From the IMG/VR virus record IMGVR_UViG_3300014205_000180, positions 1 to 64,000 of that record: a DNA stretch of 64,000 nucleotides; one strand, 5' to 3'. Below are positions 396 to 15,670 of the stretch, in pieces. The notes under the pieces were generated by a model. It was not told the DNA's origin. It saw only the letters and a list, made by a program, of their open reading frames with translations, and made no database searches. Each line of letters starts with the position of its first letter. The first letter of the stretch is position 1. Origin of the DNA: a virus. Taxonomy: Duplodnaviria > Caudoviricetes. A program made the position numbers and the translations under genes.

Positions 396-857
396 ATGAA
401 AGTAGGAGGCGTTGGAGTTGGTCAAGCAATAGGCCCAGCAATAATATCTAGAAAAGCAGTGGAATTGATGGAAATTGATTATGAACAATTGCTTGGAAAA
501 TTAAAAAAACATTTAAAACGCATAGAACACCCAGATATATTAACAATAAGATATTTTGTATTTGATTATTTGTATCCACCAAAAAATAAAAAAGATCAAC
601 ATGGCCGATTTTTCGCAGATATAAATGATTCATCAGTTATAAAAGTTGTTAATGTATTATATGATTTAAGTCCACGTGTTAAATTAATTATTGATAATAA
701 TACAGATAAATTGAATGGAGGATATACAGGATTATTACCACGAACGATCACTATTCCAAAAATTAAAAAGCCATTTCCGAAATTTCCAATTTTCAATGAA
801 ACCTTCGATAATATCGACAGCAAGGTAACTGATCTTTTAAATATTGACAAAAAATGA
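396..857 (+). CDS. YE-scaffold family protein (paralogue 1)
   Basis: IDYEQLL and VVNVLYDLSP motifs shared with about 10 local paralogues. Confidence 0.7.
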   Translation: MKVGGVGVGQAIGPAIISRKAVELMEIDYEQLLGKLKKHLKRIEHPDILTIRYFVFDYLYPPKNKKDQHGRFFADINDSSVIKVVNVLYDLSPRVKLIIDNNTDKLNGGYTGLLPRTITIPKIKKPFPKFPIFNETFDNIDSKVTDLLNIDKK

Positions 858-1171
858 AATATCGAGAGCTTGATTATGGTTGGTTAATGTCAGAAATCAT
901 GAAGAAGTATGCAGAGAATAGACTATCTGATAGCATATTATCAATAATTAGGAGAATATTAACAGAAAATAAAATAATATTGGAAGATGGCGGGATAGGT
1001 GATGTGGTAGCCATTCTCATTCCATTAGATGAAACTGGAGCTATTAAAAAAATAGTTGAACATGAATATACACATCCATATATCCCATTAATGTATACAG
1101 ATTCAGTTAAGATCGCTGATACCACACGTCAAAGTTTAGAATCAAGATATGGAGTCAAGACATCCCGATAA
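854..1171 (+). CDS. YE-scaffold family protein (paralogue 2)
   Basis: LDYGWLM and VVAILIPLDE motifs; ATGA overlap with the previous gene; tail HPYIPL. Confidence 0.7.
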   Translation: MKYRELDYGWLMSEIMKKYAENRLSDSILSIIRRILTENKIILEDGGIGDVVAILIPLDETGAIKKIVEHEYTHPYIPLMYTDSVKIADTTRQSLESRYGVKTSR

Positions 1172-1493
1172 GCAATTTGAATATATCTTTTGCTCTATAT
1201 GGTGTTGAAACTACTGATTTAACTATTTTTTCAAAAAAGAGTGTATTATATATCATGATTTTATAATACAATTCTGGTTTCAATTCCTGCAAGACTTCTA
1301 ACACCTCTTCTGCACGGTCCCATTGATCTAATACTTTAGAACCGCCAATCTTTGGATTTTTACCTTTTTCTAATACTAAGACTATCAATGCTTCTGGCTT
1401 CATCACCCCAACATGCTTAGAATATTGTCCTTCAAGGTCACGGATCAGATCTTCATAATTTACTTCATGAAAATTGATCATGCTAGTCAGCAT
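1155..1493 (-). CDS. YE-scaffold family protein (paralogue 3)
   Basis: VNYEDLI and VLEVLQELKPE motifs. Confidence 0.7.
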   Translation of the reverse strand: MLTSMINFHEVNYEDLIRDLEGQYSKHVGVMKPEALIVLVLEKGKNPKIGGSKVLDQWDRAEEVLEVLQELKPELYYKIMIYNTLFFEKIVKSVVSTPYRAKDIFKLLIGMS

Positions 1494-1632
1494 TTATATA
1501 AGCAATTAGTTCCTCACGTGTCATGCTAGCAACTCTGTTTGGAATATAAACATACCTGTCATATCCTGAATCTGCCATAATTTCTTTGGCTTCCTTCTCA
1601 AGCTGTTTTCGTGACATGCATTCGATGTTCAT
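1483..1632 (-). CDS. 49-aa hypothetical protein (not in ORF track)
   Basis: ATG at 1632, open to TAG at 1483; fills the gap between co-oriented genes. Confidence 0.45.
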   Translation of the reverse strand: MNIECMSRKQLEKEAKEIMADSGYDRYVYIPNRVASMTREELIAYINAD

Positions 1633-1633
1633 A

Positions 1634-2632
1634 TTATGCCTTTGTGCTGTCTCTAACTATCACTTTATATTGACTGCGACCATGTGACCACTCAACCGGA
1701 CCAACCCAGGTTGGGTGAATATGAATGACTGCCCAACGCTTATTCTTGTAGCGTTCAGCCTTTAAAATCTTGGTGTGACCCCTACGCAAATGCGGGGTAG
1801 GGCTGGCATGTTCACCACCCTTGCTTTCAGATGGCGGTCTAATAATGTGAACCTTCATCGGATCAATCATTAAGACTTTTGGCCTGTCATGAAACCGTGG
1901 GGTCTTAACATGCTTATTACATGGCTTGACATGGGCTGGAGTGTCCACTACCAGATAATGTCTAGGCAGATTGATGTAGTGCAGTTGATCAAGTGCGCAA
2001 TCAACTGACGCCATGAAATCGCCTTTGACAGCACGATTGTACAGATCGTCGCCAACTTCCATGCCGCTATTAGGAATAGCTAATCTCTCAGCACTAGTGA
2101 TTGGAATTACGCTCTCAGGGATTGATTGGAATATAGCTTTATCTTCCTGATCCATGATACCAATCCATGCCATTACATCACCATCAACAAAATAACGCCT
2201 AATGTTGCCTTCAGTTGGGCGTGAAATTTGAATCTTACCAATAATCAGGCTGAATGAACCAATATGAACTTCATCCATCGCAGCATTGCTACAAAATGTG
2301 ATGATATTAACATCACGATAAATATTATGACCATCAATTACCTTATCGCCTTCCTCATAATCTGTAGCGTCAAATAATAGCACTACTCCCATAGTATCAA
2401 CTAATAGGCAGCTATCAAAAGGCATAGGCGGTGGCAGTATGCGTTGTTCATGTGTCAGATTTCTAGCAGTTTCTAGTACCACCTTTTCGCGTTCGGCATC
2501 AAATGTGAACATTGGTGAATTATCAATTAAATTGCAAATCCTCTTAGATGCTTTAGATGTGTTAATAGCAGGTCTGATGATCTTATCACAGACACGGCAA
2601 AAACGATTAAAAACATCTGTTGACGTAACCAT
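1634..2632 (-). CDS. conserved phage protein with C-terminal HxSPxxHxRRGH motif
   Basis: HASPTPHLRRGH...IHPTWVG motif typical of a widespread phage family of unknown function. Confidence 0.7.
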   Translation of the reverse strand: MVTSTDVFNRFCRVCDKIIRPAINTSKASKRICNLIDNSPMFTFDAEREKVVLETARNLTHEQRILPPPMPFDSCLLVDTMGVVLLFDATDYEEGDKVIDGHNIYRDVNIITFCSNAAMDEVHIGSFSLIIGKIQISRPTEGNIRRYFVDGDVMAWIGIMDQEDKAIFQSIPESVIPITSAERLAIPNSGMEVGDDLYNRAVKGDFMASVDCALDQLHYINLPRHYLVVDTPAHVKPCNKHVKTPRFHDRPKVLMIDPMKVHIIRPPSESKGGEHASPTPHLRRGHTKILKAERYKNKRWAVIHIHPTWVGPVEWSHGRSQYKVIVRDSTKA

Positions 2633-2649
2633 ATTAGTTTATAACAAGA

Positions 2650-3264
2650 TTAACGTTTTCCTTTAATATGATTCCTGTAATCATTGATACTATTATCAAG
2701 ATGGCCTTCATATTCGGTACTGAAATTTAGACCTTTAAGCTCATAGCAATTATCATAATTTTTGGCTTGGAGGTCTAAAGTATCGACCAATGCAATATTA
2801 ATCTTTGTGTGATCGAATTCAGGAATTGTTTCAATTGTCTTATTTGTCATACCTACACAAATTAATGGCCGATATAAAATGTTATATTCTTTATTTAATT
2901 CTTTATCGAATTTATTACCATACATGATAGCAGCGTTTCTTTTCATTCTTTCAACACTATTCTTGATGTTTGGATGGACACTTATGACATAACCATCATT
3001 AAATTTCTTAAACATGTACATGAACCAATTCTGGTAATCGCCTTCGCACCATTCAAGCAAATGATCGTAGACCGCTTTAGCATTATCGATAATTAAATTG
3101 GCTTGGGTTCTATTATTACTTGTATCTTGTTTCCATAAGACACCAATTGGCATTGGCGATTCAAAATCTTCCCATTCTTTTAAGATCGCAAAGTTATCGT
3201 CTTGTGAATTGTCGATAACTTTAAATGTTCCACGAAACAATGGAGTATAACCAAGAATTATCAT
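2650..3264 (-). CDS. hypothetical protein
   Basis: 204-aa ORF with GGAGG SD and TGTTATAAA motif upstream. Confidence 0.7.
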   Translation of the reverse strand: MIILGYTPLFRGTFKVIDNSQDDNFAILKEWEDFESPMPIGVLWKQDTSNNRTQANLIIDNAKAVYDHLLEWCEGDYQNWFMYMFKKFNDGYVISVHPNIKNSVERMKRNAAIMYGNKFDKELNKEYNILYRPLICVGMTNKTIETIPEFDHTKINIALVDTLDLQAKNYDNCYELKGLNFSTEYEGHLDNSINDYRNHIKGKR

Positions 3265-3300
3265 AATGCCTCCAATTCTTTATAACAACAATCTGTATTA

Positions 3301-3519
3301 CTATAAATGGGCGTGCGCTCTTGCTCTTATATCTTTATTAGTCTTATCCCAAGATTTTTCATCCATCGGCACTATTTCACTAGTACCGTCATTGTTATAA
3401 AACACATGCGCTTTAATCGATGGCTGATTCACCAACTTTGCACATTTACTACACATTAAACTATCGAGCAATTCGATACGCTCTTCTTCTACTTCATTGC
3501 CACAAGCACATTTTCTCAT
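3301..3519 (-). CDS. DksA/TraR-like C4 zinc-finger protein
   Basis: CACG-x-EER-x-LL-x-CSKC spacing; paralogue at 42366-42611. Confidence 0.55.
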   Translation of the reverse strand: MRKCACGNEVEEERIELLDSLMCSKCAKLVNQPSIKAHVFYNNDGTSEIVPMDEKSWDKTNKDIRARAHAHL

Positions 3520-4013
3520 GAATGTAAAGCTAAATGCATTACATCAACGCATTCATTACAGCAATGAACAGTATTGTCCTTGTTAGACATTAAGCGTTTG
3601 AACTTACTGTTATCTCTACCACAATATGAGCATTTGTAGTTAGTACGTATTTTAACATATTCATCAAGACCTATCTCAATAATTTTTATTGCATGCATTA
3701 TTGATGAACCATGCATGGCTCCTGAACAATCATTATGACAAGCAGCCATGACTGCTTTTTCCATTTCGCCATTAGTAAGATCATTAACTTGATCAACTGT
3801 AGAAACTTGCTTTGTGATAACTTTTTCTTTAACAATATCTTTAATTGGATCTAATACTTGTAATGCAGCATACATCATATTAACACATGTTGCTTCATAT
3901 CCACCACCAAATCCGCTAATCTCTCTACAGCTTTTTGGGATTGGATATTTAGCTCTAATAGCTTCCTGACCAGGAAATGGCGGGACTATTCTTGTATCAG
4001 GAGCATCATTCAT
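3516..4013 (-). CDS. hypothetical protein with C-terminal ClpX-type C4 zinc-binding domain
   Basis: CSYCGR...KRLM...VHCCNECVD resembles the ClpX ZBD (CSFCGK...KLI...ICDECVD). Confidence 0.6.
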   Translation of the reverse strand: MNDAPDTRIVPPFPGQEAIRAKYPIPKSCREISGFGGGYEATCVNMMYAALQVLDPIKDIVKEKVITKQVSTVDQVNDLTNGEMEKAVMAACHNDCSGAMHGSSIMHAIKIIEIGLDEYVKIRTNYKCSYCGRDNSKFKRLMSNKDNTVHCCNECVDVMHLALHS

Positions 4014-4014
4014 G

Positions 4015-4416
4015 TTATTTGCCTTTATTTTTTGTTAGTATATTTTCAACTTCTTTTATTTTGTCATCATATAATTTAACAGCTTGTTCACGTGTGGGCT
4101 TTTCACCTTTTGGTTTAAAAATCATGCATGAATAAAAACATCCGTTCGATTCAGTTTGATTTCTAGATAACGGGCAGCACTGTCTTTTAGTCGAATATTT
4201 GATGTCTACTCTATTTGGCTGATCTGGCCATAGATAATCTTGTGGATCTGGCCAACCACTCTTATCACCGCAGCACATACCCCATGAGCAATGTGTATGT
4301 TTATTGCCAATTTCTTCACTATCTTCATGCTTAAGCTCTGCTCCATTAGCAATTAAATCACGCATACGCTTAAGGAACGCTAAATAACGATCATCACTTA
4401 GATTAATGTTTTTCAT
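4015..4416 (-). CDS. Cys-rich hypothetical protein
   Basis: 133-aa ORF with CSWGMC, CCP and GCFYSC motifs. Confidence 0.65.
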   Translation of the reverse strand: MKNINLSDDRYLAFLKRMRDLIANGAELKHEDSEEIGNKHTHCSWGMCCGDKSGWPDPQDYLWPDQPNRVDIKYSTKRQCCPLSRNQTESNGCFYSCMIFKPKGEKPTREQAVKLYDDKIKEVENILTKNKGK

Positions 4417-4557
4417 TTGATCTTTCTAAATCTTCTATGTTTAAACGTTCATTTATTAATTTATATAATTCGTCTGAACGATGCAACATATATTTCCCAA
4501 CTATCAGCCCGCCAAATAAGAAAGCCATCAAATGGCTTAATATTAGAATGACTACGA

Positions 4558-4815
4558 TCATTGTTTGTGCGTTTCGTTTTTTATTTTATCTCTAACTTCT
4601 TTTGGTATCAAATGAGTTGGCCATACATATGTTCTACGACAACGTGATGATGACCATATGATATCACCATTTTTTGATGTTGTAAAACTACCATTATGAT
4701 TAATACATATATAATATTCTGTTTTTAAGCCATCTTTAGCTATATGCGGTCCACTTAATATTCTAAGTTGTCGTGGTATTCCTTTACCACGATATGGATT
4801 ATCGAATACTATCAT
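4558..4815 (-). CDS. hypothetical protein
   Basis: 85-aa ORF in a tightly packed minus-strand run. Confidence 0.55.
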   Translation of the reverse strand: MIVFDNPYRGKGIPRQLRILSGPHIAKDGLKTEYYICINHNGSFTTSKNGDIIWSSSRCRRTYVWPTHLIPKEVRDKIKNETHKQ

Positions 4816-4816
4816 A

Positions 4817-5047
4817 TTACCAATCTGAGTGCTGCTTTTGGCCGGGTGGCTTTATCATTGTCGCAACATAATGATAATATGCACTAGCAGATGATGGTGC
4901 TTGGCATACTTGAACGCTGCCAACTAATCTTTCATTTTTCTCATGAACACGAGTATAAACTTCGCTCATAATATCTTTAACACTAAATCCATCATGTTCT
5001 AGCACTGTATATATGCCATAATCATTAATTCTTACCTTTTCGCTCAT
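4817..5047 (-). CDS. hypothetical protein
   Basis: 76-aa ORF with AGGAGA SD. Confidence 0.6.
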   Translation of the reverse strand: MSEKVRINDYGIYTVLEHDGFSVKDIMSEVYTRVHEKNERLVGSVQVCQAPSSASAYYHYVATMIKPPGQKQHSDW

Positions 5048-5086
5048 GATTATCTCCTATGACTTTATATTATAATTGTACGTTTA

Positions 5087-5416
5087 TTAAATATTAGTAT
5101 TTTCTGTTACTGTAAATTCAACTGATGCTGAAATTATTACTTCAAGTCCACAATGTTCACAAGTGTGAGTCTCTGATGCTCCATCCCATGAACTCATATC
5201 GTCATTACCACCTAATCCAGTAAGGCTAATTTCTTTTTTGCATTTTGGGCATTTCGCATACCCAATATTTTTTGTGTCTTTCACTATATTGAAATACCGT
5301 ATTTTAAAATCATGTATAAAAGAATTCCAATAACCGCTGCAAAAAGAATAGCTAAAGATTACGATAAAAATCAAGTTATAATTATAACTTGGGATAAAAA
5401 ATATGGCAGAACTCAT
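5087..5416 (-). CDS. small zinc-ribbon protein (true start probably internal, near VKDTK)
   Basis: CPKC...CEHCG pairs; the N-terminal part overlaps the plus-strand gene at 5312. Confidence 0.5.
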   Translation of the reverse strand: MSSAIFFIPSYNYNLIFIVIFSYSFCSGYWNSFIHDFKIRYFNIVKDTKNIGYAKCPKCKKEISLTGLGGNDDMSSWDGASETHTCEHCGLEVIISASVEFTVTENTNI

Positions 5417-5539
5417 GTTACTACTTATGGTAAATCAATTGAAGAATGTGAACAAGCAGCAGCTGGCGGCAACTTTATTAAAAAAGCATTGGGATGGCCA
5501 GATAAATTATGTAGAGCTAAACCAAGTCGCGTAAAATGA
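5312..5539 (+). CDS. conserved phage hypothetical protein
   Basis: IPITAAKRIA...THVTTYG motif; GTATTTT motif upstream. Confidence 0.65.
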   Translation: MYKRIPITAAKRIAKDYDKNQVIIITWDKKYGRTHVTTYGKSIEECEQAAAGGNFIKKALGWPDKLCRAKPSRVK

Positions 5540-5793
5540 TTTATGAAAATGGATTCAATAATTTAAAAATTGATCAAAACGTTAAAATGTATTATTGGAT
5601 ATTAGATAATAATAATGGTGATTTATTTAAAAGATATCTTGTAGAAACAACTGCTACCGATTCGATAACTCTTGGAAGTAATGTTACTGTTTTATGGTCT
5701 GGAATTGATGGAGTGGTTGCTTATAGGATGTTATATTTAATCCATGGTGGTCATGATGTTAAACAAGTTATTGAAAGTTTAGGATTAAAATGA
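5536..5793 (+). CDS. hypothetical protein
   Basis: 85-aa ORF overlapping both neighbours. Confidence 0.55.
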   Translation: MIYENGFNNLKIDQNVKMYYWILDNNNGDLFKRYLVETTATDSITLGSNVTVLWSGIDGVVAYRMLYLIHGGHDVKQVIESLGLK

Positions 5794-6419
5794 AACGCAA
5801 CGAGCAGCCGGTTATAACCATATCAACAGACCCTATTGAAGCTATTCGTTATAATTTGCGTTCTGCCGCCGATGCGCTGATGGCTGCTGGAAAAATCTAT
5901 GTGCAAGAGTTGAATGTCGATCCGACGTTCCGCGATCGTTTGCGTAAAGCCATCCCAGAGTTGACTGCCGGATTTCTGGCAGCCCTTGAAAAGGTTGGAC
6001 TAGGAGCCTTAGACCCTCGTGTGCTGTATGACGGCTGTCCATGTCCGACATTGGTTGCACACCTCCCACCTTCCGAGCAACGTAGGTTGATCGAAAAAAC
6101 TGTGGAGCTTGCGGATGAGCACGGAGGGAGTCAGACTGTGTGGTTCCGTGATCTGTCTCCATTCCAGGCGAGGCAAATACTGTCATCGGACGGCATTCGC
6201 AGTGTTTCCGAACAAGTTTCCTACCTGAAGAGTTTGCGGATCGTCAAGAGCAAAAACACCATGGATCAGAGTCGGCAGATTGTTACGAAAGACAATCAGG
6301 TAGCCGCCGTTCAGATCGATACCAAGCGTGGCCGAGTGATGATTTCCAGTGCTCCCGTGACATTCACTGCTGATGACCTTCGTGCTCTGATCCGGGAAAT
6401 AGAAAATGTGCAGCGATAG
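5790..6419 (+). CDS. hypothetical protein in a GC-rich insert
   Basis: 209-aa ORF, visibly more GC-rich than its flanks. Confidence 0.7.
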   Translation: MKRNEQPVITISTDPIEAIRYNLRSAADALMAAGKIYVQELNVDPTFRDRLRKAIPELTAGFLAALEKVGLGALDPRVLYDGCPCPTLVAHLPPSEQRRLIEKTVELADEHGGSQTVWFRDLSPFQARQILSSDGIRSVSEQVSYLKSLRIVKSKNTMDQSRQIVTKDNQVAAVQIDTKRGRVMISSAPVTFTADDLRALIREIENVQR

Positions 6420-6936
6420 GTATAAAGAAATCGCAGCATTTGAGGAACAGGTCTCAAAAGCTTTGTGGAAAGCGCGATCAGGTGATGAGGTAGGAGCAAA
6501 ACTGTATCGTACAAAATATGGCCCAGACCGTGGTGAGCCTCATATCCTAGAAAAGAATTCTTCATTACCAAGGCCAGAATGGATTGTAAAAGGGACCTCG
6601 TGCCATTACGAAATCTCCATCATTGTATGCGAAACAACCGCGCAATGGGCTTTTGAGAATGGATTCACACTAGAAGAAATTGCTCGGTGGTGGAGTATGC
6701 AGATTCGACCACCAGCCACCGTGCGGGACGGATGGCCCTGGTCAGCAAAGGCCCGTTGGGCTGAAGGCAGGGTGCGTGCCAATCGGAATGCGCAGTATGA
6801 AGCGCAGTGGAGAGAACGTAACGGAATAGAGCCGATTGGAAAGACCATGGCTCGCAAGGAAGCCATCAAGAAGAAGAACGCACAACGGCATCGTCAACGG
6901 CGACAGGCGATGGTGGACGCTATTATAGGGACTTAG
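6406..6936 (+). CDS. basic hypothetical protein in a GC-rich insert
   Basis: 176-aa ORF overlapping the previous gene; Arg-rich C-terminus. Confidence 0.6.
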   Translation: MCSDRYKEIAAFEEQVSKALWKARSGDEVGAKLYRTKYGPDRGEPHILEKNSSLPRPEWIVKGTSCHYEISIIVCETTAQWAFENGFTLEEIARWWSMQIRPPATVRDGWPWSAKARWAEGRVRANRNAQYEAQWRERNGIEPIGKTMARKEAIKKKNAQRHRQRRQAMVDAIIGT

Positions 6937-6974
6937 CCAAATTATAGAAAATGTAAATAATAAGGAGATAAATC

Positions 6975-7199
6975 ATGAGTGAATTAAGCTACAAAGTAAC
7001 TGCAGCTATGGCGGCAATAAATAATGCACCATGGGCTAAAAACGCTAATAAATTTTGTTTAACTTGTAACGGAAATACCAGAAATCTAAATGAAGCCGAA
7101 TTAGAAGAACTTTTAAATCGTTATAGAGCAAATGGTCGTGCTGATGTTAAAATTGAAACTAAAGAAAATGGTCAAAAGTTTATATTAAACTTCGTATAA
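6975..7199 (+). CDS. hypothetical protein
   Basis: 74-aa ORF with AAGGAGA SD. Confidence 0.65.
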   Translation: MSELSYKVTAAMAAINNAPWAKNANKFCLTCNGNTRNLNEAELEELLNRYRANGRADVKIETKENGQKFILNFV

Positions 7200-7406
7200 T
7201 AATGAATAGTTAGTTTCTATTTCAGAAATTTCTTTATGTGTGGCCTGATTATCTAAATATTCTGTTATTTTTTCACGAACAGATTGCCTATAATAATTAA
7301 CATCAATTGTTACATAAATATTTCCACTGATATTAACTGTTTGTCTTTCTCTATTCTTAAAATGTGCATGCATCTTTTCATAATCTAAAGTAATACTTAA
7401 GCTCAT
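7185..7406 (-). CDS. YE-scaffold family protein (divergent paralogue 4)
   Basis: LDYEKM motif; second motif poorly conserved. Confidence 0.55.
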   Translation of the reverse strand: MSLSITLDYEKMHAHFKNRERQTVNISGNIYVTIDVNYYRQSVREKITEYLDNQATHKEISEIETNYSLLYEV

Positions 7407-7657
7407 ATGATGGTTATTTCATCCAAATCGAGGTTTGAATGAATTTTTGATAATCTCTTAATTTCTGGATCAAGATCGCATAATATATCCAATACTTTAC
7501 CCATAGCTGTTGTATCAATATCGCCATTTATACTACCCTCATATGCGAGTTCTCCAGTTGTTGCTAAATATGTATACAAATCGTAATATCCAGTCGGATT
7601 CATAGCTTTTATCTCAACAATCAATTTTTCATAATTTATTTTAACTATTTCTACCAT
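7403..7657 (-). CDS. YE-scaffold family protein (paralogue 5)
   Basis: INYEKLI and VLDILCDLDPEI motifs. Confidence 0.7.
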   Translation of the reverse strand: MVEIVKINYEKLIVEIKAMNPTGYYDLYTYLATTGELAYEGSINGDIDTTAMGKVLDILCDLDPEIKRLSKIHSNLDLDEITII

Positions 7658-7705
7658 GACATTTTATATTTATTAACAAAGTATTGTAAACTGTTATAAA
7701 ATGGT

Positions 7706-8053
7706 GTGAGCTATCCATTCTATGTTATTCTCAAAGATGGTTGGTGGATGGTTATTGCCAGCCCGCTTAAGCGTGATATTAGACATACCACGCTATGGGA
7801 ATTAATAGTCGCTAGAATGGTGGCTATTGAGAATTGCTTAAATTATAATGATATTAAGAATCTGCCATATTCGCAGATTAGGGGGAGAGTTGTTGATAAC
7901 GTGATTTACTATGGCGACGAATTTACTGCCGAACAAAAGGAAGTGATCAAGAATACACTTGGCCAATTTGTCTACGTTTATGATGAACATGAAAAAATGA
8001 CTGAATACGATATTGAAGTGTTTAATAGCCTCAAAAATAAGGCATGCGGTTAG
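7706..8053 (+). CDS. hypothetical protein
   Basis: 115 aa, GTG start just after TGTTATAAA; RGRV and DEHE motifs. Confidence 0.65.
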   Translation: MSYPFYVILKDGWWMVIASPLKRDIRHTTLWELIVARMVAIENCLNYNDIKNLPYSQIRGRVVDNVIYYGDEFTAEQKEVIKNTLGQFVYVYDEHEKMTEYDIEVFNSLKNKACG

Positions 8054-8625
8054 AATTTATTAATGAATCGTTGCTTGCCGCCGAAGCAGAAATAACTGAT
8101 ATTAATAAATTACAAAAATCATTAGGTATTAATTTATCCGGTATGCAAGAAATAGGCCATGGTACGATGGCTACTGTTTATAAAATTGGAGATAAAGCTT
8201 TAAAAATCACTAGGGATAATAAAGATGTAATTCATACTGTTAAAGCTCAGAGAATTAAGAGTAATAACGTTGTTAAAATTCACAGACTGTCTAAGGATGG
8301 CTTGAGTAGCGGTACTGCAATGTTGCTTGATTTTGTTGATGGACCACTTGCACCATTTTCTACTGGCGAATGGCATGCCTTAATTCAAGGTTCTGGGATT
8401 GATGAGTTATCAGATGCTGTTAAATTAATATTAACTGATAATAAAGGAATAAGAAATAAAATTTTAACAGATCACGGCTTAAATGATAACAAATCAAGAT
8501 CTAAGATTAGCGAATTATTTAAAACTTTAAGATCACTTCAATCAATTGGCGTCAACATTGACGATCTTGGCGATAATATTATCGACACTGGTGATCGGTA
8601 CGTTTTGATCGACCTCGGGAATTAA
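8044..8625 (+). CDS. protein kinase-like fold protein
   Basis: Gly loop IGHGTMATVYK, ALKIT lysine, catalytic-loop-like DDLGDNI and DFG-like IDLG. Confidence 0.7.
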   Translation: MRLEFINESLLAAEAEITDINKLQKSLGINLSGMQEIGHGTMATVYKIGDKALKITRDNKDVIHTVKAQRIKSNNVVKIHRLSKDGLSSGTAMLLDFVDGPLAPFSTGEWHALIQGSGIDELSDAVKLILTDNKGIRNKILTDHGLNDNKSRSKISELFKTLRSLQSIGVNIDDLGDNIIDTGDRYVLIDLGN

Positions 8626-8839: not shown

Positions 8840-8841
8840 TT

Positions 8842-9177
8842 TTATTCCTGTGCTGTTATTGTAAGTGGCTTATTATCATTCAATGGTGGTAATACCACTA
8901 TCTTTCCAGTAACATCAAATGTGATTGTTATATGATCTACAGGAGGAATGTACCAACTACATTCTATTTCACGTATGTAAGGGTCTAATTCCATTAAAAC
9001 CTCAATGATTTTATCAATGAACTTACGATCATTTGGATAAATATCCTTTATTACACGTGTCAATTCTGCACTATCTCTTGGTTGTTTAGCTTTAATATAT
9101 TCTATAAGCTCTTCATAATTGACATGTAAGTGATTAGGTTTTTCATAATTGATATGTAAATGATTTAATTCGTACAT
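8842..9177 (-). CDS. YE-scaffold family protein (paralogue 6, duplicated N-terminal motif)
   Basis: NHLHINYEK-P-NHLHVNYEELI tandem duplication; IIEVLMELDPYI. Confidence 0.7.
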   Translation of the reverse strand: MYELNHLHINYEKPNHLHVNYEELIEYIKAKQPRDSAELTRVIKDIYPNDRKFIDKIIEVLMELDPYIREIECSWYIPPVDHITITFDVTGKIVVLPPLNDNKPLTITAQE

Positions 9178-9179
9178 GG

Positions 9180-9503
9180 CTACACCTGTGTTACGCCATA
9201 TTCAACATTAGCTGCTTTATCACTATTATTGCTTATTTCTGGATCGATTTCTGGGTATAAATCATATAATATTCTTAAAATTTTATGTAACTCCTTCATG
9301 TTGTATACATCCATTAATGGTATTACCTTTTCAGTATAACGCCTTTCGTTATCGAAGTTTAGCCATTCTTTTATCTTTATAAATCCGTTTGTTTCAAGAT
9401 ATCTGATAATAGTGTTAGACTTTGTTATTTCTCGCCCATATTTATAATCATCAATGACAACCTTAAGCTTTTCATAATTTAAATTGGCATGATTTATGGA
9501 CAT
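9180..9503 (-). CDS. YE-scaffold family protein (paralogue 7)
   Basis: LNYEKLK and ILRILYDLYPEI motifs. Confidence 0.7.
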   Translation of the reverse strand: MSINHANLNYEKLKVVIDDYKYGREITKSNTIIRYLETNGFIKIKEWLNFDNERRYTEKVIPLMDVYNMKELHKILRILYDLYPEIDPEISNNSDKAANVEYGVTQV

Positions 9504-9826
9504 GCAGTTAAAAAACTATTATTGATTTTAATGGGGACATAATAATGTGGTCGAATTACAGATAATTCTCCAGGCCAGCTTGCTCCTTTATATCCAATTA
9601 CTACATAATCATTATCACTATCAATAATTGTATGATCTATATCTAATAATATATCGATTATTTTTAATATTTCGTGCGTATTATTTGCTAAAATTGGCTT
9701 ATTATTTCCAATTAATATGGCTCCGATAGTCAACCCGAGACTCATTCTACTAGTTATTGGCTTTTTTAATTTCCAATTTTTAATATCAGTAAGTAATTGT
9801 TCATAGTTGACATCAAAAGCATTCAT
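9494..9826 (-). CDS. YE-scaffold family protein (paralogue 8) with gp23-like GYKG tail
   Basis: VNYEQLL and IIDILLDID motifs, followed by NDYVVIGYKGAS. Confidence 0.7.
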   Translation of the reverse strand: MNAFDVNYEQLLTDIKNWKLKKPITSRMSLGLTIGAILIGNNKPILANNTHEILKIIDILLDIDHTIIDSDNDYVVIGYKGASWPGELSVIRPHYYVPIKINNSFLTACP

Positions 9827-10287
9827 GCTGGTCTATCAGGATAATACTGAGGAATATATTCTACCACTTTTGACCATTTATTTCCAGCAATTAAGCATAA
9901 ACGACGAATCAAAGTTGCAGATGTTGGATGTGCCTTGAGATGAGCAAGACGTTCTGGATCTAAACCCTTATTCGCTATAATACGATCTGGATCGCCTAAG
10001 AATTGAATTAGATCACCAAATACCAGTCTATGAGCAGTATCGCTCTTTGAAATTGTAGTAGAATTTTTAGTGAGAACTTCGGTATTTGGCGGAAGATGAT
10101 CAGCAGGTACAGTAGTTGTGTCTTTAAAACGTTGTTCAAAAGCTATCATATTATCATCAATTACACACCATCCAAATGATCCATCACCTCGTGCAATTTT
10201 TCTAGTTAAAACTGGAATCTCACTACCATCTGGCATCTTTAATGTCGCAGCGCTGTAAGTTCCACTTAAAGTATCTGATTGATTCAT
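9823..10287 (-). CDS. hypothetical protein
   Basis: 154-aa ORF with AAGGA SD. Confidence 0.7.
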   Translation of the reverse strand: MNQSDTLSGTYSAATLKMPDGSEIPVLTRKIARGDGSFGWCVIDDNMIAFEQRFKDTTTVPADHLPPNTEVLTKNSTTISKSDTAHRLVFGDLIQFLGDPDRIIANKGLDPERLAHLKAHPTSATLIRRLCLIAGNKWSKVVEYIPQYYPDRPA

Positions 10288-10327
10288 TTTATATCCTTGA
10301 TAATTTTTATGACAAAAGTCATTTAAA

Positions 10328-10921
10328 TCAATCCTTCTTTGGAACTAATATTTTACTTCCTGGCTTATAAGGTGCAAAGACAAGCCCAGGACTAGTTTTA
10401 GATTTACCTTTAAATCCCATTTTAATATTACTAAGGCTAAGATCTTCTTTAGCCTCAGCGCTCCATTTGCATTTTAATGAACGTCGTTCAGCTTTTATCT
10501 TTATTATTACCATTCCATTTTTTTCGACTCTATCGCCAGATTCTAAATCACGCCATCTTCTTAATTGTTCTGGAACAGATTGAAGTCTGTATGGTGCACA
10601 TGTCCTGCAAATATGTTCTTGGTACCAATTTCCAGGTATTCTAACATCATGAATGAAACAACATCCATCACCAACATCTAATATTCTAATTGGCCATTCA
10701 ATCTTTTTGTTTTTAAACAATTCACTAATATTTTCAGCGTTAAAATTAAGAACTTTATAAAACGTTAATTTTTTACCTGATTTTACTCCAAGCGAAAAAC
10801 AATTTCCGCGAGGCAGTGGGAAATCTTTAGGAATATAACCAACACAAGTCTGACTACCCATTTCAATAGCATTAAGGAATTTAGTTGGTTTTGAAACTGC
10901 CTTAATGTCTTTTAAATTCAT
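10328..10921 (-). CDS. hypothetical protein with C-terminal T4 gp23-like capsid segments
   Basis: IKAERRSLKCKWSAEAKEDL and MGFKGKSKTSPGLVFAPYKP resemble two conserved gp23 blocks. Confidence 0.65.
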   Translation of the reverse strand: MNLKDIKAVSKPTKFLNAIEMGSQTCVGYIPKDFPLPRGNCFSLGVKSGKKLTFYKVLNFNAENISELFKNKKIEWPIRILDVGDGCCFIHDVRIPGNWYQEHICRTCAPYRLQSVPEQLRRWRDLESGDRVEKNGMVIIKIKAERRSLKCKWSAEAKEDLSLSNIKMGFKGKSKTSPGLVFAPYKPGSKILVPKKD

Positions 10922-10954
10922 ATAAATAAAATACCTAACTCAAAAATATTTAAT

Positions 10955-11875
10955 ATGAAGTTGAATAGTTTAAATAAGGATAAATTAAGAATTGGGGTGA
11001 TAGGGTATTGTTCTCAATATTTTGATAAAAAAGATGCTAAAAATAAATTAGAAAAAACAGTCAAGAATATAGTAAAAAACAACAAACTTCCAGTACATAT
11101 AGTGTCGGGCCTTACAAATATTGGAATGATGGCGATAGCATATAAAGTGGCAAGCGAAAATGGCTACAAAACAGTTGGCTATGCATGTAAAAAAGCTTTA
11201 GATATGGAATTATTTGATGTTGATAAGAAACATATTATTGGAGATAAGTGGGGAGATGAAAGCGAAGAATTTATTAATAATATAGACGTATTAATAAAAG
11301 TTGGAGGTGGTGAACAATCTAAGAAAGAATTAAAAATGGCTAAAGAATTAGGTATTGAAACTCATGAGTGCGATGTAAAAGAGAAAATATCATATTGTTT
11401 AATGGGATATCTTAATAAAGATTCAGCAAAAGAAATTCATGAACAAGCCAAGAATTTAAAAGCCAGAGAAGTTAAAAAACCAGATTACCACATAACTATA
11501 AGATACTGGTTAGCTGATCCTAAAGAAAGTATCTCAAAAGTAACCAAATATTTAGATGATAGATTTAAGCATCCAGTGCTTATTGAAGCAGATTATGAAG
11601 GCGAAACTGAAACTTTTGGTAATGAAAAATCACATGTACTTCTTGTTAATAGCAAATCTTTAAACGAATTCCAAAAGGACATTGATAATAAATTGCAAAG
11701 CTTTGGCGCTCCACCATCAGATTTTCCTGATTATAGGGCGCACATAACTGTCGCAGAAGGCGTAACAAAGAATGTTAAAATTAAGAATTGTAAAGTGCTG
11801 ATAAACAAATGGATTCTTACTACTAACAATGATTCAAACGAAAAACCTAAAGTTATTTGGGAAAAGGAATTCTAG
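10955..11875 (+). CDS. SLOG domain fused to 2H phosphodiesterase (Acb1/gp57B-like)
   Basis: N-terminal IGVIG, IVSGLTNIG, TVG and VGGGEQSKKE SLOG-type motifs; C-terminal HxT pair YHITIRY and GAPPSDFPDYRAHITVA. Confidence 0.75.
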   Translation: MKLNSLNKDKLRIGVIGYCSQYFDKKDAKNKLEKTVKNIVKNNKLPVHIVSGLTNIGMMAIAYKVASENGYKTVGYACKKALDMELFDVDKKHIIGDKWGDESEEFINNIDVLIKVGGGEQSKKELKMAKELGIETHECDVKEKISYCLMGYLNKDSAKEIHEQAKNLKAREVKKPDYHITIRYWLADPKESISKVTKYLDDRFKHPVLIEADYEGETETFGNEKSHVLLVNSKSLNEFQKDIDNKLQSFGAPPSDFPDYRAHITVAEGVTKNVKIKNCKVLINKWILTTNNDSNEKPKVIWEKEF

Positions 11876-12317
11876 AGATATCTTCAGCATAAATTCCAAC
11901 AACTTTACTATCCATTGATAATTGGGTTCTTAATCTAGTTAATTGCGGATGATGCTTTAAACAATTGCTTAATCTTCTACCAGAATCAGTGTTAATAATT
12001 TTAATTTTTGCATTTACTTTACCATCTTTTACTTCAACATCTGTTACCACAGCACCAGCACGCATTAAATCATTACGACCACTTTCTCCATCAATATTGT
12101 CAAATACCAATACAGTCTTTTCTTTTATTCTTTTTTGCAGATCCTCAATTGCTTTTTCTACTACTTCTTTTGGATAAACCATTCCATTAGCGTTTGGCTT
12201 ATTATCATTGCAGACTTCCATAATGTTAACGACTAAATCAGGATTATCTTGTTTAAACTGTTCGCGCATTTTTGCGTCACGGATGGTCTGCTCATTTTCA
12301 TCGTCATGATTACTCAT
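11853..12317 (-). CDS. T4 gp21-like prohead protease homologue, apparently inactive
   Basis: NANGMVYPKEVVEKAI and AKIKIINTDSGR match gp21 blocks; the ELDHP His and GxSSRG Ser motifs are absent. Confidence 0.6.
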   Translation of the reverse strand: MSNHDDENEQTIRDAKMREQFKQDNPDLVVNIMEVCNDNKPNANGMVYPKEVVEKAIEDLQKRIKEKTVLVFDNIDGESGRNDLMRAGAVVTDVEVKDGKVNAKIKIINTDSGRRLSNCLKHHPQLTRLRTQLSMDSKVVGIYAEDISRIPFPK

Positions 12318-12355
12318 ATTATTTTATAATAGAAACCAGATTGCGTAAATAGTAT

Positions 12356-12646
12356 ATGGGTCCGACAGATAGTGATGTTGATACAACATGCAAGCACACT
12401 ATGCTTTTACCTAGACGTGCAACTGATATGTATGATAAATGTGCAATTTGTGGGAAATTTGTCAGGGATTCTCTTGATTATGTTGGCACTACAACTATTG
12501 GAACTATGACCAATGTTAGTATGGGTCGTGTTGCAATTAATCAGCCTGCTATACAGATTATTCATGATAGAAACAAAATAGCTAAAAAGTTAGAATGGAC
12601 GCCTCCACCAAATGCGCCAAAAAAGCGTAATTTGTACAATAAATAA
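12356..12646 (+). CDS. hypothetical protein with zinc-binding motif
   Basis: CKH...CAICG motif. Confidence 0.55.
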   Translation: MGPTDSDVDTTCKHTMLLPRRATDMYDKCAICGKFVRDSLDYVGTTTIGTMTNVSMGRVAINQPAIQIIHDRNKIAKKLEWTPPPNAPKKRNLYNK

Positions 12647-12689
12647 TTTTTTAAACTTGTTAAATTAAACTAAAAATAAAATATATCCT

Positions 12690-13385
12690 GTGAAAACCAT
12701 AAGCGTAATAATCCACTCAATATCAGCGTGCAATCTCAAATGCACTCATTGTGGTCAAGGGACCTGGAGAAAAGATCTTCCCACATATAAGTTAACATTT
12801 GAGCAGGTTAAAAAATTTTTAGATGTTTGTAAAGAAAGTGACTATTCTATTAAAGAAATTTTGATAAGTGGTGGTGAACCTTCATTATGGAAAGATCTTG
12901 AATCATCAGTAAAATTAATGAAGCAATCTGAAGTTGTCAAATCGGTAACATTGTTTAGTAACGGCACTAGATTAATGAGCGATGAAGTTATTAAAAATGT
13001 TAATCAGATAATAGTTTCATATTATAATGGATCTAATAAAGAAGCAGTCGATGAAATGGTCAAAAAGTGTAAAGAATATGGTGTTAGATTTAAATTGAAG
13101 GATAAGCATAAATTCTGGCCATGGCCAACAGAAAAAGTTGAAGGAACTGTTCCAGGGCAGTGTGTATGCACACCAATGTCATTACTTGGTGATGAAATAG
13201 CTGTATGTGGTCAAGTATTTGAACTTGAAAGAAGATTTAATTTAGATTGTTCAACTCATAAAATCAAAGTAGAAAATGGATTCCTTGATCGTTTAAATAT
13301 GAAAATAGGAACGTACGATATTTGTGGATATTGCATTGAAAATAGGTCAGTTCAAAGAAAAATGGATAAAGTGTTAAACGATTAG
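12690..13385 (+). CDS. radical SAM protein
   Basis: CNLKCTHC cluster motif, SGGEP, FSNG and C-terminal Cys cluster. Confidence 0.85.
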   Translation: MKTISVIIHSISACNLKCTHCGQGTWRKDLPTYKLTFEQVKKFLDVCKESDYSIKEILISGGEPSLWKDLESSVKLMKQSEVVKSVTLFSNGTRLMSDEVIKNVNQIIVSYYNGSNKEAVDEMVKKCKEYGVRFKLKDKHKFWPWPTEKVEGTVPGQCVCTPMSLLGDEIAVCGQVFELERRFNLDCSTHKIKVENGFLDRLNMKIGTYDICGYCIENRSVQRKMDKVLND

Positions 13386-13396
13386 TATATAGGTTA

Positions 13397-13663
13397 ATGC
13401 ATCAGGGTTTAGACTATGAAAAAATGATAAAAGACATAAGGGATATTGTATCAGAATGGTCTATCACTAAAAATAATGATGATGACAGTGATTTGTTTTC
13501 AACAATTGAAAGAAGAGTATTCTTTAAACTTGGCATAGATAAAGATGAAATTCAATCAGTTATAAAAATACTATCAGATTTAGATGAATCTATTGGTGCT
13601 ATTTTTGTCAGAATAGATGTTGATATTATGGATAAAGCAATTTATAAAATAAATAAATTTTAA
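13397..13663 (+). CDS. YE-scaffold family protein (paralogue 9)
   Basis: LDYEKMI and VIKILSDLDESI motifs. Confidence 0.7.
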   Translation: MHQGLDYEKMIKDIRDIVSEWSITKNNDDDSDLFSTIERRVFFKLGIDKDEIQSVIKILSDLDESIGAIFVRIDVDIMDKAIYKINKF

Positions 13664-14508
13664 GGATTTTGCCTTTTTAAGCGTATTTCTGATTCTGATG
13701 GCCCTTCGCGCCATTCTCCACTACGATTTTTCTGTACAGTTTGTTTTGGTAACAGCGATGATATTCTATTTTCATTTGCATCATGTGGGTTATCTTCATA
13801 CATTGGTTCAATAGTTCTTCTATTATAAATCTGTCCATCAAGGTTTCCATTCATCCTGCCAATCATGTATTTGGCTTCATGCGTTATAGTCGATAGGAAT
13901 ATAGCATGTTGTACCATGATTACTATCAATCTGATTCTATTGGTTGAAAAAAATGCGCTTTGAGCAACTTTTTCGCTTTGGATTATTAAAGATTCAATTA
14001 ATTCAGTATCCCATTTTTTAAATGCAGCTATCGCTTGTGGTGGTATGCCACGTCTAATCCATTTATCGTTAATTGAATTTTGTAAGTCAGTAAGCATCGT
14101 TGATACACGATTGGAAAATTGTTCTGCGTATTTTGGTCCTCTATCCTCAAATCCCTCTCTTTTAACTTCCGCAGCAATAAATTCATTAAATATATCGTGC
14201 CACGCTGTGAGATAATCAGAAAGCATATCTCTTAACATTTCAGTTCTAGCATGACAACCACATCTTATAGTTGGTAATTTCCTAGCCATTAATTCTTGAA
14301 CAGTGACGAAAAAGAAATGATCTTCAACTAATGGTCTATTATATATATCAGTACCTTTTGTTATTTTATCAGTCTTTTTAAAAAGTTTCTTTTTCAACTT
14401 CAAAAAATATATTGTTAAAATTTCTCTGAATGCCCATATTAGCACCAATAGAAACGCTCCTAGTATACTTGCGGTGCTAGTATCAATGCCTAAATCAATG
14501 TCGCCCAT
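13660..14508 (-). CDS. N-terminally membrane-anchored helical protein (holin-like or lysis candidate)
   Basis: Single N-terminal TM, basic stop-transfer segment and LVEDHFFF motif; similar layout at 31862-32635. Confidence 0.55.
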   Translation of the reverse strand: MGDIDLGIDTSTASILGAFLLVLIWAFREILTIYFLKLKKKLFKKTDKITKGTDIYNRPLVEDHFFFVTVQELMARKLPTIRCGCHARTEMLRDMLSDYLTAWHDIFNEFIAAEVKREGFEDRGPKYAEQFSNRVSTMLTDLQNSINDKWIRRGIPPQAIAAFKKWDTELIESLIIQSEKVAQSAFFSTNRIRLIVIMVQHAIFLSTITHEAKYMIGRMNGNLDGQIYNRRTIEPMYEDNPHDANENRISSLLPKQTVQKNRSGEWREGPSESEIRLKRQNP

Positions 14509-14597
14509 ACTTTAATTTTGCGCATTGTTAATTAAGACATAATCATTAATTTTATTAAAACGTATTTAATGTACAATAAAGGGACAAAAATAATTTC

Positions 14598-14849
14598 ATG
14601 GACAAAATTGAAGCACGCAACATACGTTTACTTAATACTAATAATTTTACAAAAGAAGTTATTCAACAATTAATTGACAGATTAAACTCTGAACATATAG
14701 CTATAACAAATAACACAGCTATAGTGCCTGGAACTGTAAAATTGGTTGATAATTATATTGAGGCTAATGTTAACTCAACAGGCAATAATAAAATGGTCAA
14801 ATATGCTAATATTATAAACGATATATTATTAGCGCCTATTCCTTCTTAA
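14598..14849 (+). CDS. hypothetical protein
   Basis: 83-aa ORF; weak resemblance to the gp21-like ORF at 11853 (NFTKEVIQQLI). Confidence 0.5.
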   Translation: MDKIEARNIRLLNTNNFTKEVIQQLIDRLNSEHIAITNNTAIVPGTVKLVDNYIEANVNSTGNNKMVKYANIINDILLAPIPS

Positions 14850-15090
14850 TTTCTTCTTCCTTTTTACTATCTTCAATTACTTTTTTAATTTCATTTACAA
14901 TTTCATCGATTAATTTACTTATGACAGTTGTTCCATCGGCATACTTTGTGTTTTTTACGCCAACTCTTTTAAAGTCTTTTCCAGTAAAATAGTATACACC
15001 CAAATTACTTTCATTCCATTCTACTACATCACCAACATTAAAGTGATTAGATCCTATTGTTATATCTTTTGTAATTGTAATGCTTTTCAT
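14836..15090 (-). CDS. hypothetical protein
   Basis: 84-aa ORF with AAGGA SD. Confidence 0.6.
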   Translation of the reverse strand: MKSITITKDITIGSNHFNVGDVVEWNESNLGVYYFTGKDFKRVGVKNTKYADGTTVISKLIDEIVNEIKKVIEDSKKEEEIKKE

Positions 15091-15104
15091 GTTTTATCCT
15101 TAAT

Positions 15105-15440
15105 CTAAATACTAATACGGGCTTTTTTGGTTGGGCGATCACGACTAATCCCAATACTTTCCATTCCAATACTTATTCTGAATAGTATCAGGCGTGTTAG
15201 AGACTGACTGGCAGCCATTGGTTGAACACTGACAAGATCACTAATGGCGTCATGACTAAGTGCTTTTTTAACATTTTCATCTAATTCAGCTAAAATTCTA
15301 GCAACATCGTATATACTATGACCTCTTATTTTGCCTCTTAAAATTTTATTTAATTGATTTAATAATTGAAACTGATCCTTAATTAGATGAGGCTTTAACT
15401 TTTTTAAAATTTCTTCGTAATCTAACTTACTATAATGCAC
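15105..15440 (-). CDS. YE-scaffold family protein (paralogue 10) with Gol-like DLVSVQPM tail
   Basis: LDYEEIL and VARILAELDENV motifs, followed by ISDLVSVQPM. Confidence 0.7.
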   Translation of the reverse strand: MHYSKLDYEEILKKLKPHLIKDQFQLLNQLNKILRGKIRGHSIYDVARILAELDENVKKALSHDAISDLVSVQPMAASQSLTRLILFRISIGMESIGISRDRPTKKARISI

Positions 15441-15454
15441 TAAATTAAAATACG

Positions 15455-15670
15455 TTAAATGTCAATCTCATTGGAAATAAGCATTAAATCTCTATCAAGA
15501 TCACACAATATATTAACAATTCTGTTTGATGCATCCCAATTTTCTATTACTCCATCTACTGACCTATCTATATTTAACACATCACATGTAAAATTGAAAA
15601 TATCAAAAAAATTACGCGGTTTATTAGCTTTAACTTCTTTAATTAACCATTCAAAATCAACATTAATCAT
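15455..15670 (-). CDS. YE-scaffold family protein (paralogue 11)
   Basis: VDFEWLI and IVNILCDLDRDL motifs. Confidence 0.65.
   Translation of the reverse strand: MINVDFEWLIKEVKANKPRNFFDIFNFTCDVLNIDRSVDGVIENWDASNRIVNILCDLDRDLMLISNEIDI

Follow-up and report, generated by a model that had tools for sequence, protein, structure and literature searches.

A family of small helical phage proteins with variable tails, some resembling conserved segments of the major capsid protein

Introduction

Why would a phage keep, away from its head genes, a family of small proteins some of which end in what look like pieces of its own major capsid protein (MCP)? This question is raised by the first 16 kb of a 64,000-nt stretch of viral DNA (Duplodnaviria; Caudoviricetes; positions 1 to 64,000 of IMG/VR record IMGVR_UViG_3300014205_000180; hereafter, the window), where eleven open reading frames (ORFs) encode variants of one small domain. 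Many bacterial defenses are set off by conserved portions of the structural proteins of phages, most of all by those of the capsid protein, and, to our knowledge, little beyond escape by point mutation has been described of how phages with conserved capsids cope. Here we find that the eleven ORFs form a real, previously undescribed family of proteins of 70-150 aa, in which a constant helical domain of ~65 residues is followed by a variable C-terminal tail. On sequence comparison, three of these tails (ORFs 15105, 9494, and 854), together with ORF 10328, a neighbor that does not belong to the family, copy conserved segments of the MCP. The single viral contig whose first 64 kb form the window (G000) has 150,988 bp and 33.6% guanine plus cytosine (GC); it originates from a landfill metagenome and has an estimated completeness of 60% (CheckV).

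Eleven paralogues share an N-terminal helical domain

A preliminary description of the window, made from its letters alone, had listed eleven ORFs as one paralogue family, lying on both strands in four clusters within the first 16 kb, with little obvious DNA identity between them, and had not recognized it as a named Pfam family. We found all eleven ORFs in place, each with the N-terminal motif, and the strand and cluster arrangement as described. The only DNA patches shared between paralogues are of 41 nt or less, and no Pfam or PHROG family matches the helical domain. The members are given below with the first and second motifs separated by dots, the E value obtained with a hidden Markov model (HMM) built without the member in question and, for some, the ratio of nonsynonymous to synonymous substitution rates (dN/dS) relative to the orthologue in L004, which is syntenic with the window.

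396..857 (+): ORF 396, 153 aa; IDYEQL from residue 26 ... VVNVLYDLSPRV; conserved N-terminal extension; E 2.9e-8
854..1171 (+): ORF 854, 105 aa; LDYGWL ... VVAILIPLDE; E 6e-6
1155..1493 (-): ORF 1155, 108-112 aa; VNYEDL ... VLEVLQELKPEL; E 2.2e-4
7185..7406 (-): ORF 7185, 73 aa; LDYEKM; ends at the motif-2 helix, without a tail; L004 orthologue 56% identical, dN/dS 0.20
7403..7657 (-): ORF 7403, 84 aa; INYEKL ... VLDILCDLDPEI; short tail; E 3.7e-11
8842..9177 (-): ORF 8842, 111 aa; VNYEEL ... IIEVLMELDPYI; E 4.1e-8
9180..9503 (-): ORF 9180, 107 aa; LNYEKL ... ILRILYDLYPEI; E 6e-7; dN/dS 0.10
9494..9826 (-): ORF 9494, 110 aa; VNYEQL ... IIDILLDIDHTI; E 1.2e-8
13397..13663 (+): ORF 13397, 88 aa; LDYEKM ... 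VIKILSDLDESI; E 4.7e-9; dN/dS 0.12
15105..15440 (-): ORF 15105, 111 aa; GTG start; LDYEEI ... VARILAELDENV; E 5.3e-9; dN/dS 0.10
15455..15670 (-): ORF 15455, 71 aa; VDFEWL ... IVNILCDLDRDL; 9-residue tail; E 2.5e-8; dN/dS 0.10

The consensus of motif 1 is phi-[DN]-Y-E-x-L-phi and that of motif 2 is phi-x-x-I-L-x-D-L-D-x-x-I. With the pattern [LIVM][DN][YF]E.[LIVM], 15 occurrences of motif 1 were counted in the 151-kb genome, while shuffles give an expectation of 2.7 +/- 1.6, and each of those near an N-terminus lies in one of the family members, within the first 16 kb. That the eleven ORFs are a single paralogue family was borne out by two kinds of profile test. In the leave-one-out HMM searches, 10 of the 11 members were recovered at rank 1 among the 529 stop-to-stop ORFs of the window, with E values from 2e-4 to 4e-11, and the best unrelated ORFs had E >= 0.026. 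ORF 7185 was marginal in this test (E 0.036, rank 2). When ORF 7185 was combined with its L004 orthologue in a profile and this was compared with the family profile lacking ORF 7185, the two profiles matched with a probability of 73% (E 3e-5, z 9.4, 0 of 60 shuffles), in an alignment that is collinear from motif 1 to the motif-2 helix and that identifies ORF 7185 as a divergent member stopping at motif 2.

The family alignment is coherent. Searching the rest of the genome for further copies brought no clear addition, and we found no convincing member in the remaining 135 kb of the contig. Two candidates were not accepted: a 55-aa frame at 44,990, and a 164-aa ORF at G000 95,141-95,632 (- strand; 95.1-95.6 kb), which has a motif-2-like string (ITDLLIDLDEFL) without motif 1 and a family HMM E value of 0.003-0.012, and whose resemblance may reflect chance or a very remote relationship. 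Because the family begins 396 nt from the contig end, further copies may lie past it.

Three details of individual genes were also considered. The 30-nt tandem duplication that had been reported in ORF 8842 was confirmed by direct reading of the sequence: two units at 9106..9165 (- strand) duplicate motif 1 as NHLHINYEKP / NHLHVNYEEL, with 22 identities in the first 24 nt, and the relatives P0010, P0012, and P0014 have a single copy of the unit. Tandem Repeats Finder reports nothing for this duplication, since there are only two imperfect copies. The start of ORF 396 is probably at 396, as P0154, P0156, P0157, and P0159 all conserve the N-terminal extension. Upstream of the family genes we found no common box, and motifs of the TATAAATA type and the GTATTTA type do not mark them.

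Several tails resemble conserved segments of the capsid protein

The MCP gene (gp23-type, 493 aa) lies outside the window at G000 136,334-137,860 (~136.3-137.9 kb) and is followed by a gene for a scaffold-like protein; its product, the MCP, matches Pfam Gp23 (PF07068) with 261 bits over profile positions 1-347. Each tail group was compared with a 117-sequence MCP profile using column-shuffle nulls; a single narrow MCP HMM was too insensitive for such short pieces. The preliminary description, although right about the family itself, had missed that several tails reproduce conserved MCP segments, which are the following.

15165..15251 (-): MCP-like tail of ORF 15105, DAISDLVSVQPMAASQSLTRLILFRISIG against MCP 86-112 IADNLVGVQPMSQPASLIFYVRYRYG, which corresponds to T4 gp23 107-133
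1073..1159 (+): MCP-like tail of ORF 854, HPYIPLMYTDSVKIADTTRQSLESRYGVK against MCP 438-479 APYIPLLSTPTVLDPNSYTPSKGVMTRYGKK
9524..9607 (-): MCP-like tail of ORF 9494, YVVIGYKGASWPGELSVIRPHYYVPIKI against MCP 429-451 ILMGFKGNSALDSGYFYAPYIPL
within 396..857 (+): long tail of ORF 396, TITIPKIKKPFPKFPIF against MCP 70-86, marginal (z 2.1, 2 of 60 shuffles)
10328..10921 (-): ORF 10328, not a family member, 197 aa; Cys/His-containing N-terminal part, no family helical domain, capsid-like C-terminus
10337..10588 (-): MCP-like C-terminal 85 residues of ORF 10328, RSLKCKWSAEAKEDL against MCP 277-291 and IKMGFKGKSKTSPGLVFAPYKP against MCP 429-450

The tail of ORF 15105 and the proteins P0006, P0007, P0013, P0025, and P0158 share the block L-x-G-V-Q-P-M-x-x-P-x-x-x-F, which is conserved in the N-terminal part of gp23-type MCPs and is not found in the other ten window members; in P0013, P0025, and P0158 it reads L-V-G/S-V-Q-P-M. 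As a group, these VQPM tails matched the MCP profile with an hhalign E value of 5e-10 (z 21), better than any column-shuffle, in an alignment confined to MCP 80-122. P0006 and P0007, which are relatives of ORF 15105, match positions 12-49 of Pfam Gp23 directly after the helical domain (E 2e-5), and P0006 alone reaches 24.5 bits over these positions; the window ORFs have no Pfam Gp23 match at E <= 1. The VQPM tail is retained in relatives whose overall identity is as low as 27-48%.

Two further tails match a region nearer the C-terminus of the MCP. The ORF 854 tail aligned with MCP 438-479 (PYIPL...RYG-K) at an hhalign E value of 4.5e-4 (z 7.2, 0 of 50 shuffles), with a Smith-Waterman z of 4.3. 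The ORF 9494 group, consisting of ORF 9494, its L004 orthologue, and P0022, aligned with MCP 414-470 (E 0.0027, z 5.3, 0 of 50 shuffles) and has the pattern [IV]G[YF]KG...YY[VI]P[IL]. The C-terminus of ORF 10328, with IKMGFKG...FAPYKP, gave a collinear hhalign alternative against MCP 380-461 (E 3.5e-5, z 8.8, 0 of 40 shuffles), a two-segment phmmer match to the MCP (E 1e-3) that instead pairs part of it with MCP 277-291, and weak matches to Pfam Gp23 and phrog_138. When the first 17 kb were compared with the rest of the genome, the only credible matches were that of ORF 10328 to the MCP and that of ORF 11853, described below, to gp21.

The tails of ORFs 8842, 9180, 13397, and 1155 (the last with z -1.1) and most external singletons showed no significant likeness to the MCP (z < 2.2). 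The ORF 8842 tail begins REIECSW, resembling MCP RKLKTSW, and this is not significant (tail group z 0.2). The N-terminal extension of ORF 396 showed no MCP likeness, and its tail group was marginal only. Among further relatives with capsid-like strings in their tails, which include the L005 copy at 4533-4931, P0021 has KLVKGDGLEYG where the MCP has KLIEDGGLFYG, P0028 has AIPIVKR where the MCP has ALPLLRK, the P0030 tail has QPMS and VPYIPL, and P0031 has MIGYAKHNKGFYYH; each of these is marginal on its own (z ~2-3.6 for this set).

Across 35 members, the sole library families that recurred were Pfam Gp23 and two "major head protein" PHROGs, one of them phrog_138. Since the Gp23 and phrog_138 matches span 30-45 residues of a 376-position domain, they represent fragments rather than capsid proteins. 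The family itself is not a gp23-type MCP (PF07068), for which a match above the gathering score across the HK97-type domain, in a protein of ~450-520 aa, would be expected: its window members have 71-153 aa and none matches across this domain. In the MCP alignment, most columns of the copied segments do not vary. The highly conserved stretches concerned are MCP 86-112, 277-291, 429-451, and 447-476, and the copied segments map to T4 gp23 107-133 and 434-480. There is no DNA identity between the MCP gene (58.9% GC) and the family region (32% GC), which, together with the difference in composition, argues that the likeness has been maintained or has arisen at the protein level and is not the scar of a recent recombination. 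The MCP gene also stands apart from the 33.6% GC genome as a whole and has long spurious ORFs in its other frames; this shift perhaps reflects codon adaptation to a GC-rich host, or a foreign origin.

In proteins of the VQPM group the helical domain precedes the capsid-like block as the propeptide does in the MCP, and we considered whether the domain is a diverged gp23 propeptide. On present evidence this was rejected, as hhalign gave a probability of 0.1% when the 31 non-VQPM members were compared with the MCP N-terminus profile, and residues 1-60 of ORF 15105 found nothing at E <= 10 by tblastn in 50,697 phage genomes. Collinearity alone remains as a link.

Predicted structure and selection

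The AlphaFold2 model of ORF 7403, made with the family alignment, is a small helical bundle with helices at residues 9-18, 24-33, 49-62, and 64-72 (predicted local distance difference test, pLDDT, 76; predicted template modeling score, pTM, 0.62). In the model of ORF 9494, residues 1-70 have a pLDDT of ~90, with helices at 8-21, 27-39, and 50-63, and tail residues 75-110 have a pLDDT of 47-66 without secondary structure, so that in the one long-tailed member modeled the tail is predicted to be disordered. Both models are helical. Foldseek found no match for the domain in PDB or BFVD at E <= 0.001. A wide VIA-align search gave at best Z 4.3 with a root-mean-square deviation of 2.9 over 63 residues, which is within noise; its weak resemblances were mostly to small winged-helix-type domains (Z 3.3-4.3). 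An Atlas search with the helical domain gave no usable feature match. The lack of matches is not in itself proof that the fold is new. The earlier view of the family as an old expansion of a small helical domain agrees with the helical models, with the lack of DNA identity among paralogues, and with the lack of a named family.

The same description had called the family diversifying, as in an arms race, and this is not supported as stated by the substitution rates. For seven genes compared with their L004 orthologues, dN/dS was 0.10-0.20 in five, 0.41 in ORF 9494, and 0.70 in ORF 8842. Most orthologue pairs are thus under purifying selection, pervasive diversifying selection was not seen, and the family genes are functional. 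Comparing domain with tail, we found the helical domain to be the most constrained part in four genes (dN/dS 0.08-0.17), while ORF 8842 is near neutral, with 0.96 in its tail.

Constraint on the domain raises the possibility that we are looking at a generic family of small early or accessory proteins, acting for example in regulation or in the takeover of the host, in which the helical domain does all the work and the capsid-like tails are leftovers of old fusions, now without a role. Most members lack capsid-like tails, as this would predict, and the weak fold resemblances are mostly to small winged-helix-type domains, though they do not rise above noise. Such an explanation nevertheless leaves unaccounted for the conservation of the VQPM tail in distant relatives and the presence, within 16 kb, of four separate proteins carrying capsid pieces despite the very different base composition of the MCP gene. 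We consider it unlikely.

Distribution among relatives

Searched with the family profile, 1.84 billion representative proteins yielded 31 clusters at E <= 1e-3, each with proteins in the range of 69-143 aa, and word-indexed searches added a few more relatives. L004 has at least 7 copies of the family in 20 kb, and L005/L006 have at least 10; in one of these copies (L005 4533-4931, + strand) the domain is preceded by a 60-residue N-terminal extension. No relative of the family was found among 50,697 deposited phage genomes, and megablast of the first 16 kb against phages gave no match.

These results bear on the possibility that the ORFs have no function and that, in a hyperplastic region, they represent noise of the annotation or the fragments of decaying genes. 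In its favor are the small size of the ORFs, their presence on both strands, the absence of a clear ribosome-binding site from many of them, and the almost neutral evolution of ORF 8842. Intact orthologues in L004 and L005/L006, low dN/dS in five of seven pairs, a confidently predicted domain structure, and the similar size of all 31 clusters found among 1.8 billion representative proteins make this highly improbable.

The phage itself is T4-like and probably jumbo. Among deposited phage genomes, the closest MCPs share only 30-37% identity with its own and belong to jumbo phages and to uncultured huge phages, and metagenomic relatives with MCPs 72-92% identical include complete genomes of 320-395 kb; an IMG/VR scan for a broader MCP profile yielded only MCPs of this same clade, at 72-92% identity. 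The family is absent from 10 long contigs, three of them complete, whose MCPs are 74-83% identical, in a search that finds 10 copies in the window's genome. It is therefore an accessory expansion of a narrow sub-lineage and is not needed for assembly.

Alternatively, the proteins might be capsid-directed assembly modulators whose tails pair with MCP strands or lattice contacts and which chaperone, cap, or poison the assembly of the phage's own capsid or that of a co-infecting relative or a satellite. It is the highly conserved strands of the MCP that have been copied, the helical domain stands before VQPM in the position of a propeptide, and the same island holds a look-alike of the prohead protease as well as the capsid piece in ORF 10328. 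However, complete relatives with nearly the same MCP do without the family, the helical domain has no similarity to the MCP N-terminus in either of the searches described above, and the family genes lie 120 kb from the head module. We regard a role of this kind as rather improbable.

Neighboring genes

The genes between and beside the family members include the following.

11853..12317 (-): ORF 11853, not a family member; gp21 prohead-protease paralogue, truncated; Peptidase_S77 match below the cut-off (E 3.9e-5); conserved in L004
10955-11875 (+): SLOG-2H phosphoesterase fusion, 306 aa; LDcluster4 E 1e-3, LigT_PEase E 4e-6, anti-CBASS Acb1 family E 1.3e-5, just under the cut-off
12690-13385 (+): radical SAM protein, 231 aa; E 2e-15; syntenic in L004 beside family members
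3516-4013 (-): ORF 3516, protein with a ClpX-type C4 zinc finger, 165 aa; C-terminal finger E 5e-7

ORF 11853 resembles the genuine gp21-type protease encoded at G000 ~141.3-142.0 kb (BLASTP E 2e-7, 53% identity over 30 residues; phmmer E 5e-6). In an ungapped extension just past the aligned stretch it has Ile in place of the His of the gp21 LDHP motif, and for this reason it is probably inactive. The SLOG-2H fusion may degrade cyclic-nucleotide signals or act as a sponge for them, and ORF 3516 might provide a link to host ClpX adaptors or substrates. Two other stretches had no Pfam match. At 5790-6936 (+ strand), two overlapping ORFs of 209 and 176 aa have 40% GC compared with ~32%, with long shadow ORFs on the opposite strand. 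At 8044-8625 (+ strand), a 193-aa ORF begins like the glycine loop of a kinase followed by A-L-K (GHGTMATVYKIGDKALK).

A gp21-like gene adjoining the family brings to mind the internal (ejection) proteins of T4, IPI-III, and the family could in principle be a set of capsid-targeted proteins of that style, in which an N-terminal module docks in the prohead core, the protease trims it, and the C-termini are the injected cargo. A conserved N-terminus with a variable remainder, in an accessory, polymorphic, multi-copy set, is what T4-like phages offer as a parallel (PMC3012670, PMC9026906). The spacing of motif 1, Y-x-x-[LF]-[IL]-x-[ED], resembles that of the T4 capsid-targeting sequence (CTS), and [LIM]-x-E directly follows motif 1 in four members. 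In the T4 CTS, residues 4 and 7 target the protein and residues 8 and 10 direct its processing (PMC9026906). We examined motif 1 as a portable CTS-like tag and rejected it: nowhere in the 151 kb does it stand at the N-terminus of an unrelated protein, and it always comes with the whole folded domain of 65 residues. The cleavage-type motif, with Glu at P1 after L/I-x in T4, varies among the members, with E ([LIM]-x-E) in 4/11, D ([LI]-x-D) in 3/11, and neither in 4/11, and 9/11 members are acidic (isoelectric point 4.2-6.3), whereas T-even internal proteins are described as basic (PMC9026906). A cargo role would also leave the capsid-strand tails unexplained. Taken together, these observations make internal proteins a quite unlikely explanation.

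Possible function of the capsid-like tails

The reading that we favour, tentatively and at somewhat less than an even chance, is that a constant handle carries variable tails, some of which are mimics of capsid peptides that compete for factors binding nascent capsid protein. The helical domain would be the common handle, serving folding, stability, or docking to one shared partner, and the tails would be the working ends. Those that are capsid-like would, as peptide mimics, rival nascent capsid protein in binding to the partners of those conserved segments. The likeliest targets would be host factors or abortive-infection sensors that recognize new capsid protein, in the way that Lit recognizes it by means of the Gol peptide and EF-Tu. 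Where the tail is not capsid-like, a member may carry another payload or may act through the handle alone, and the locus may form part of an accessory counter-defense island together with the Acb1-like gene and the presumably dead look-alike of the prohead protease.

Two precedents lead us to favor mimicry. In T4 gp23, a 29-residue region in the first quarter of the protein, called its most conserved part, binds EF-Tu and triggers the Lit protease (PMC3014915), and phage inhibitors that compete with a trigger are known: DSAD1 competes with a structural-protein trigger for the defense sensor DSR2 (PMC11087589). In a more specific and more doubtful form of the hypothesis, the locus would be an array of capsid-epitope decoys that occupy, blind, or pre-empt abortive-infection sensors and chaperone-based systems detecting new head proteins. 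One duplicated handle would have been fitted with different conserved MCP strands, with the dead protease look-alike and ORF 10328 alongside. We found no description in the literature of counter-defense by self-mimicry of virion proteins.

Several observations weigh against capsid-peptide mimicry. A detectable capsid-like tail is present in only three of the eleven window members, plus one marginal case, and five of the eleven have short tails or none, so that mimicry cannot account for the family as a whole. The ORF 854 and ORF 9494 matches depend on the clade-specific profile, and neither Pfam nor PHROGs detect them. The overlap of MCP 86-112 (T4 gp23 107-133) with the Gol region is probable and is judged from position and conservation. 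Finally, since the Gol peptide is by itself enough to activate Lit (PMC3014915), a tail that displays a trigger might switch a sensor on rather than block it.

Because its capsid-mimicking tails provide a specific and testable hypothesis, the locus holds more interest than an ordinary protein family without an assigned function. If the mimicry hypothesis is true, small selectable proteins displaying conserved capsid segments would be a concrete candidate for counter-defense by decoys or competitors, which could be tested directly, and the locus would point to the epitopes of the capsid that are important to hosts. Should the hypothesis fail, there remains a new protein family with a confidently predicted domain, clear boundaries, and ~30 sequence clusters, as well as a case showing that selection can preserve pieces of head genes outside the head module.

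Comparison with known systems

Of the known families, only PF07068 Gp23 and phrog_138 have local matches to this one that are significant and recur, and what matches them here is a fragment of 30-45 residues. The closest functional analogues are the T4 internal proteins IPI, IPII, and IPIII with their CTS. Like them, the family consists of accessory, polymorphic small proteins that share only an N-terminal module with a similar aromatic/hydrophobic spacing, and both can be thought of as counter-defense payloads. The module shared here is, however, a folded helical domain of ~65 residues and not a portable propeptide of 10-19 residues, a gp21-type cleavage motif is not conserved among the members, most of which are acidic, and a relation in sequence could not be detected; the internal-protein model fits poorly in tag portability, cleavage motif, and charge.

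The tail of ORF 15105 and those of its relatives reproduce the L-x-G/S-V-Q-P-M...F block equivalent to gp23 107-133, a stretch that lies in the first quarter of gp23 and is among its most conserved, and in this they are like the Gol region of T4 gp23. Here the block sits on a helical protein of 100 residues rather than on a capsid protein, binding to EF-Tu or to a sensor is putative, and we infer the overlap with the 29 Gol residues. With DSAD1 and DSR2 the likeness is one of concept, without homology: a small phage protein occupies a sensor that a virion protein would otherwise activate. DSAD1 is not described as a copy of its trigger, whereas the candidate presented here carries what appears to be a sequence copy of a trigger-type segment.

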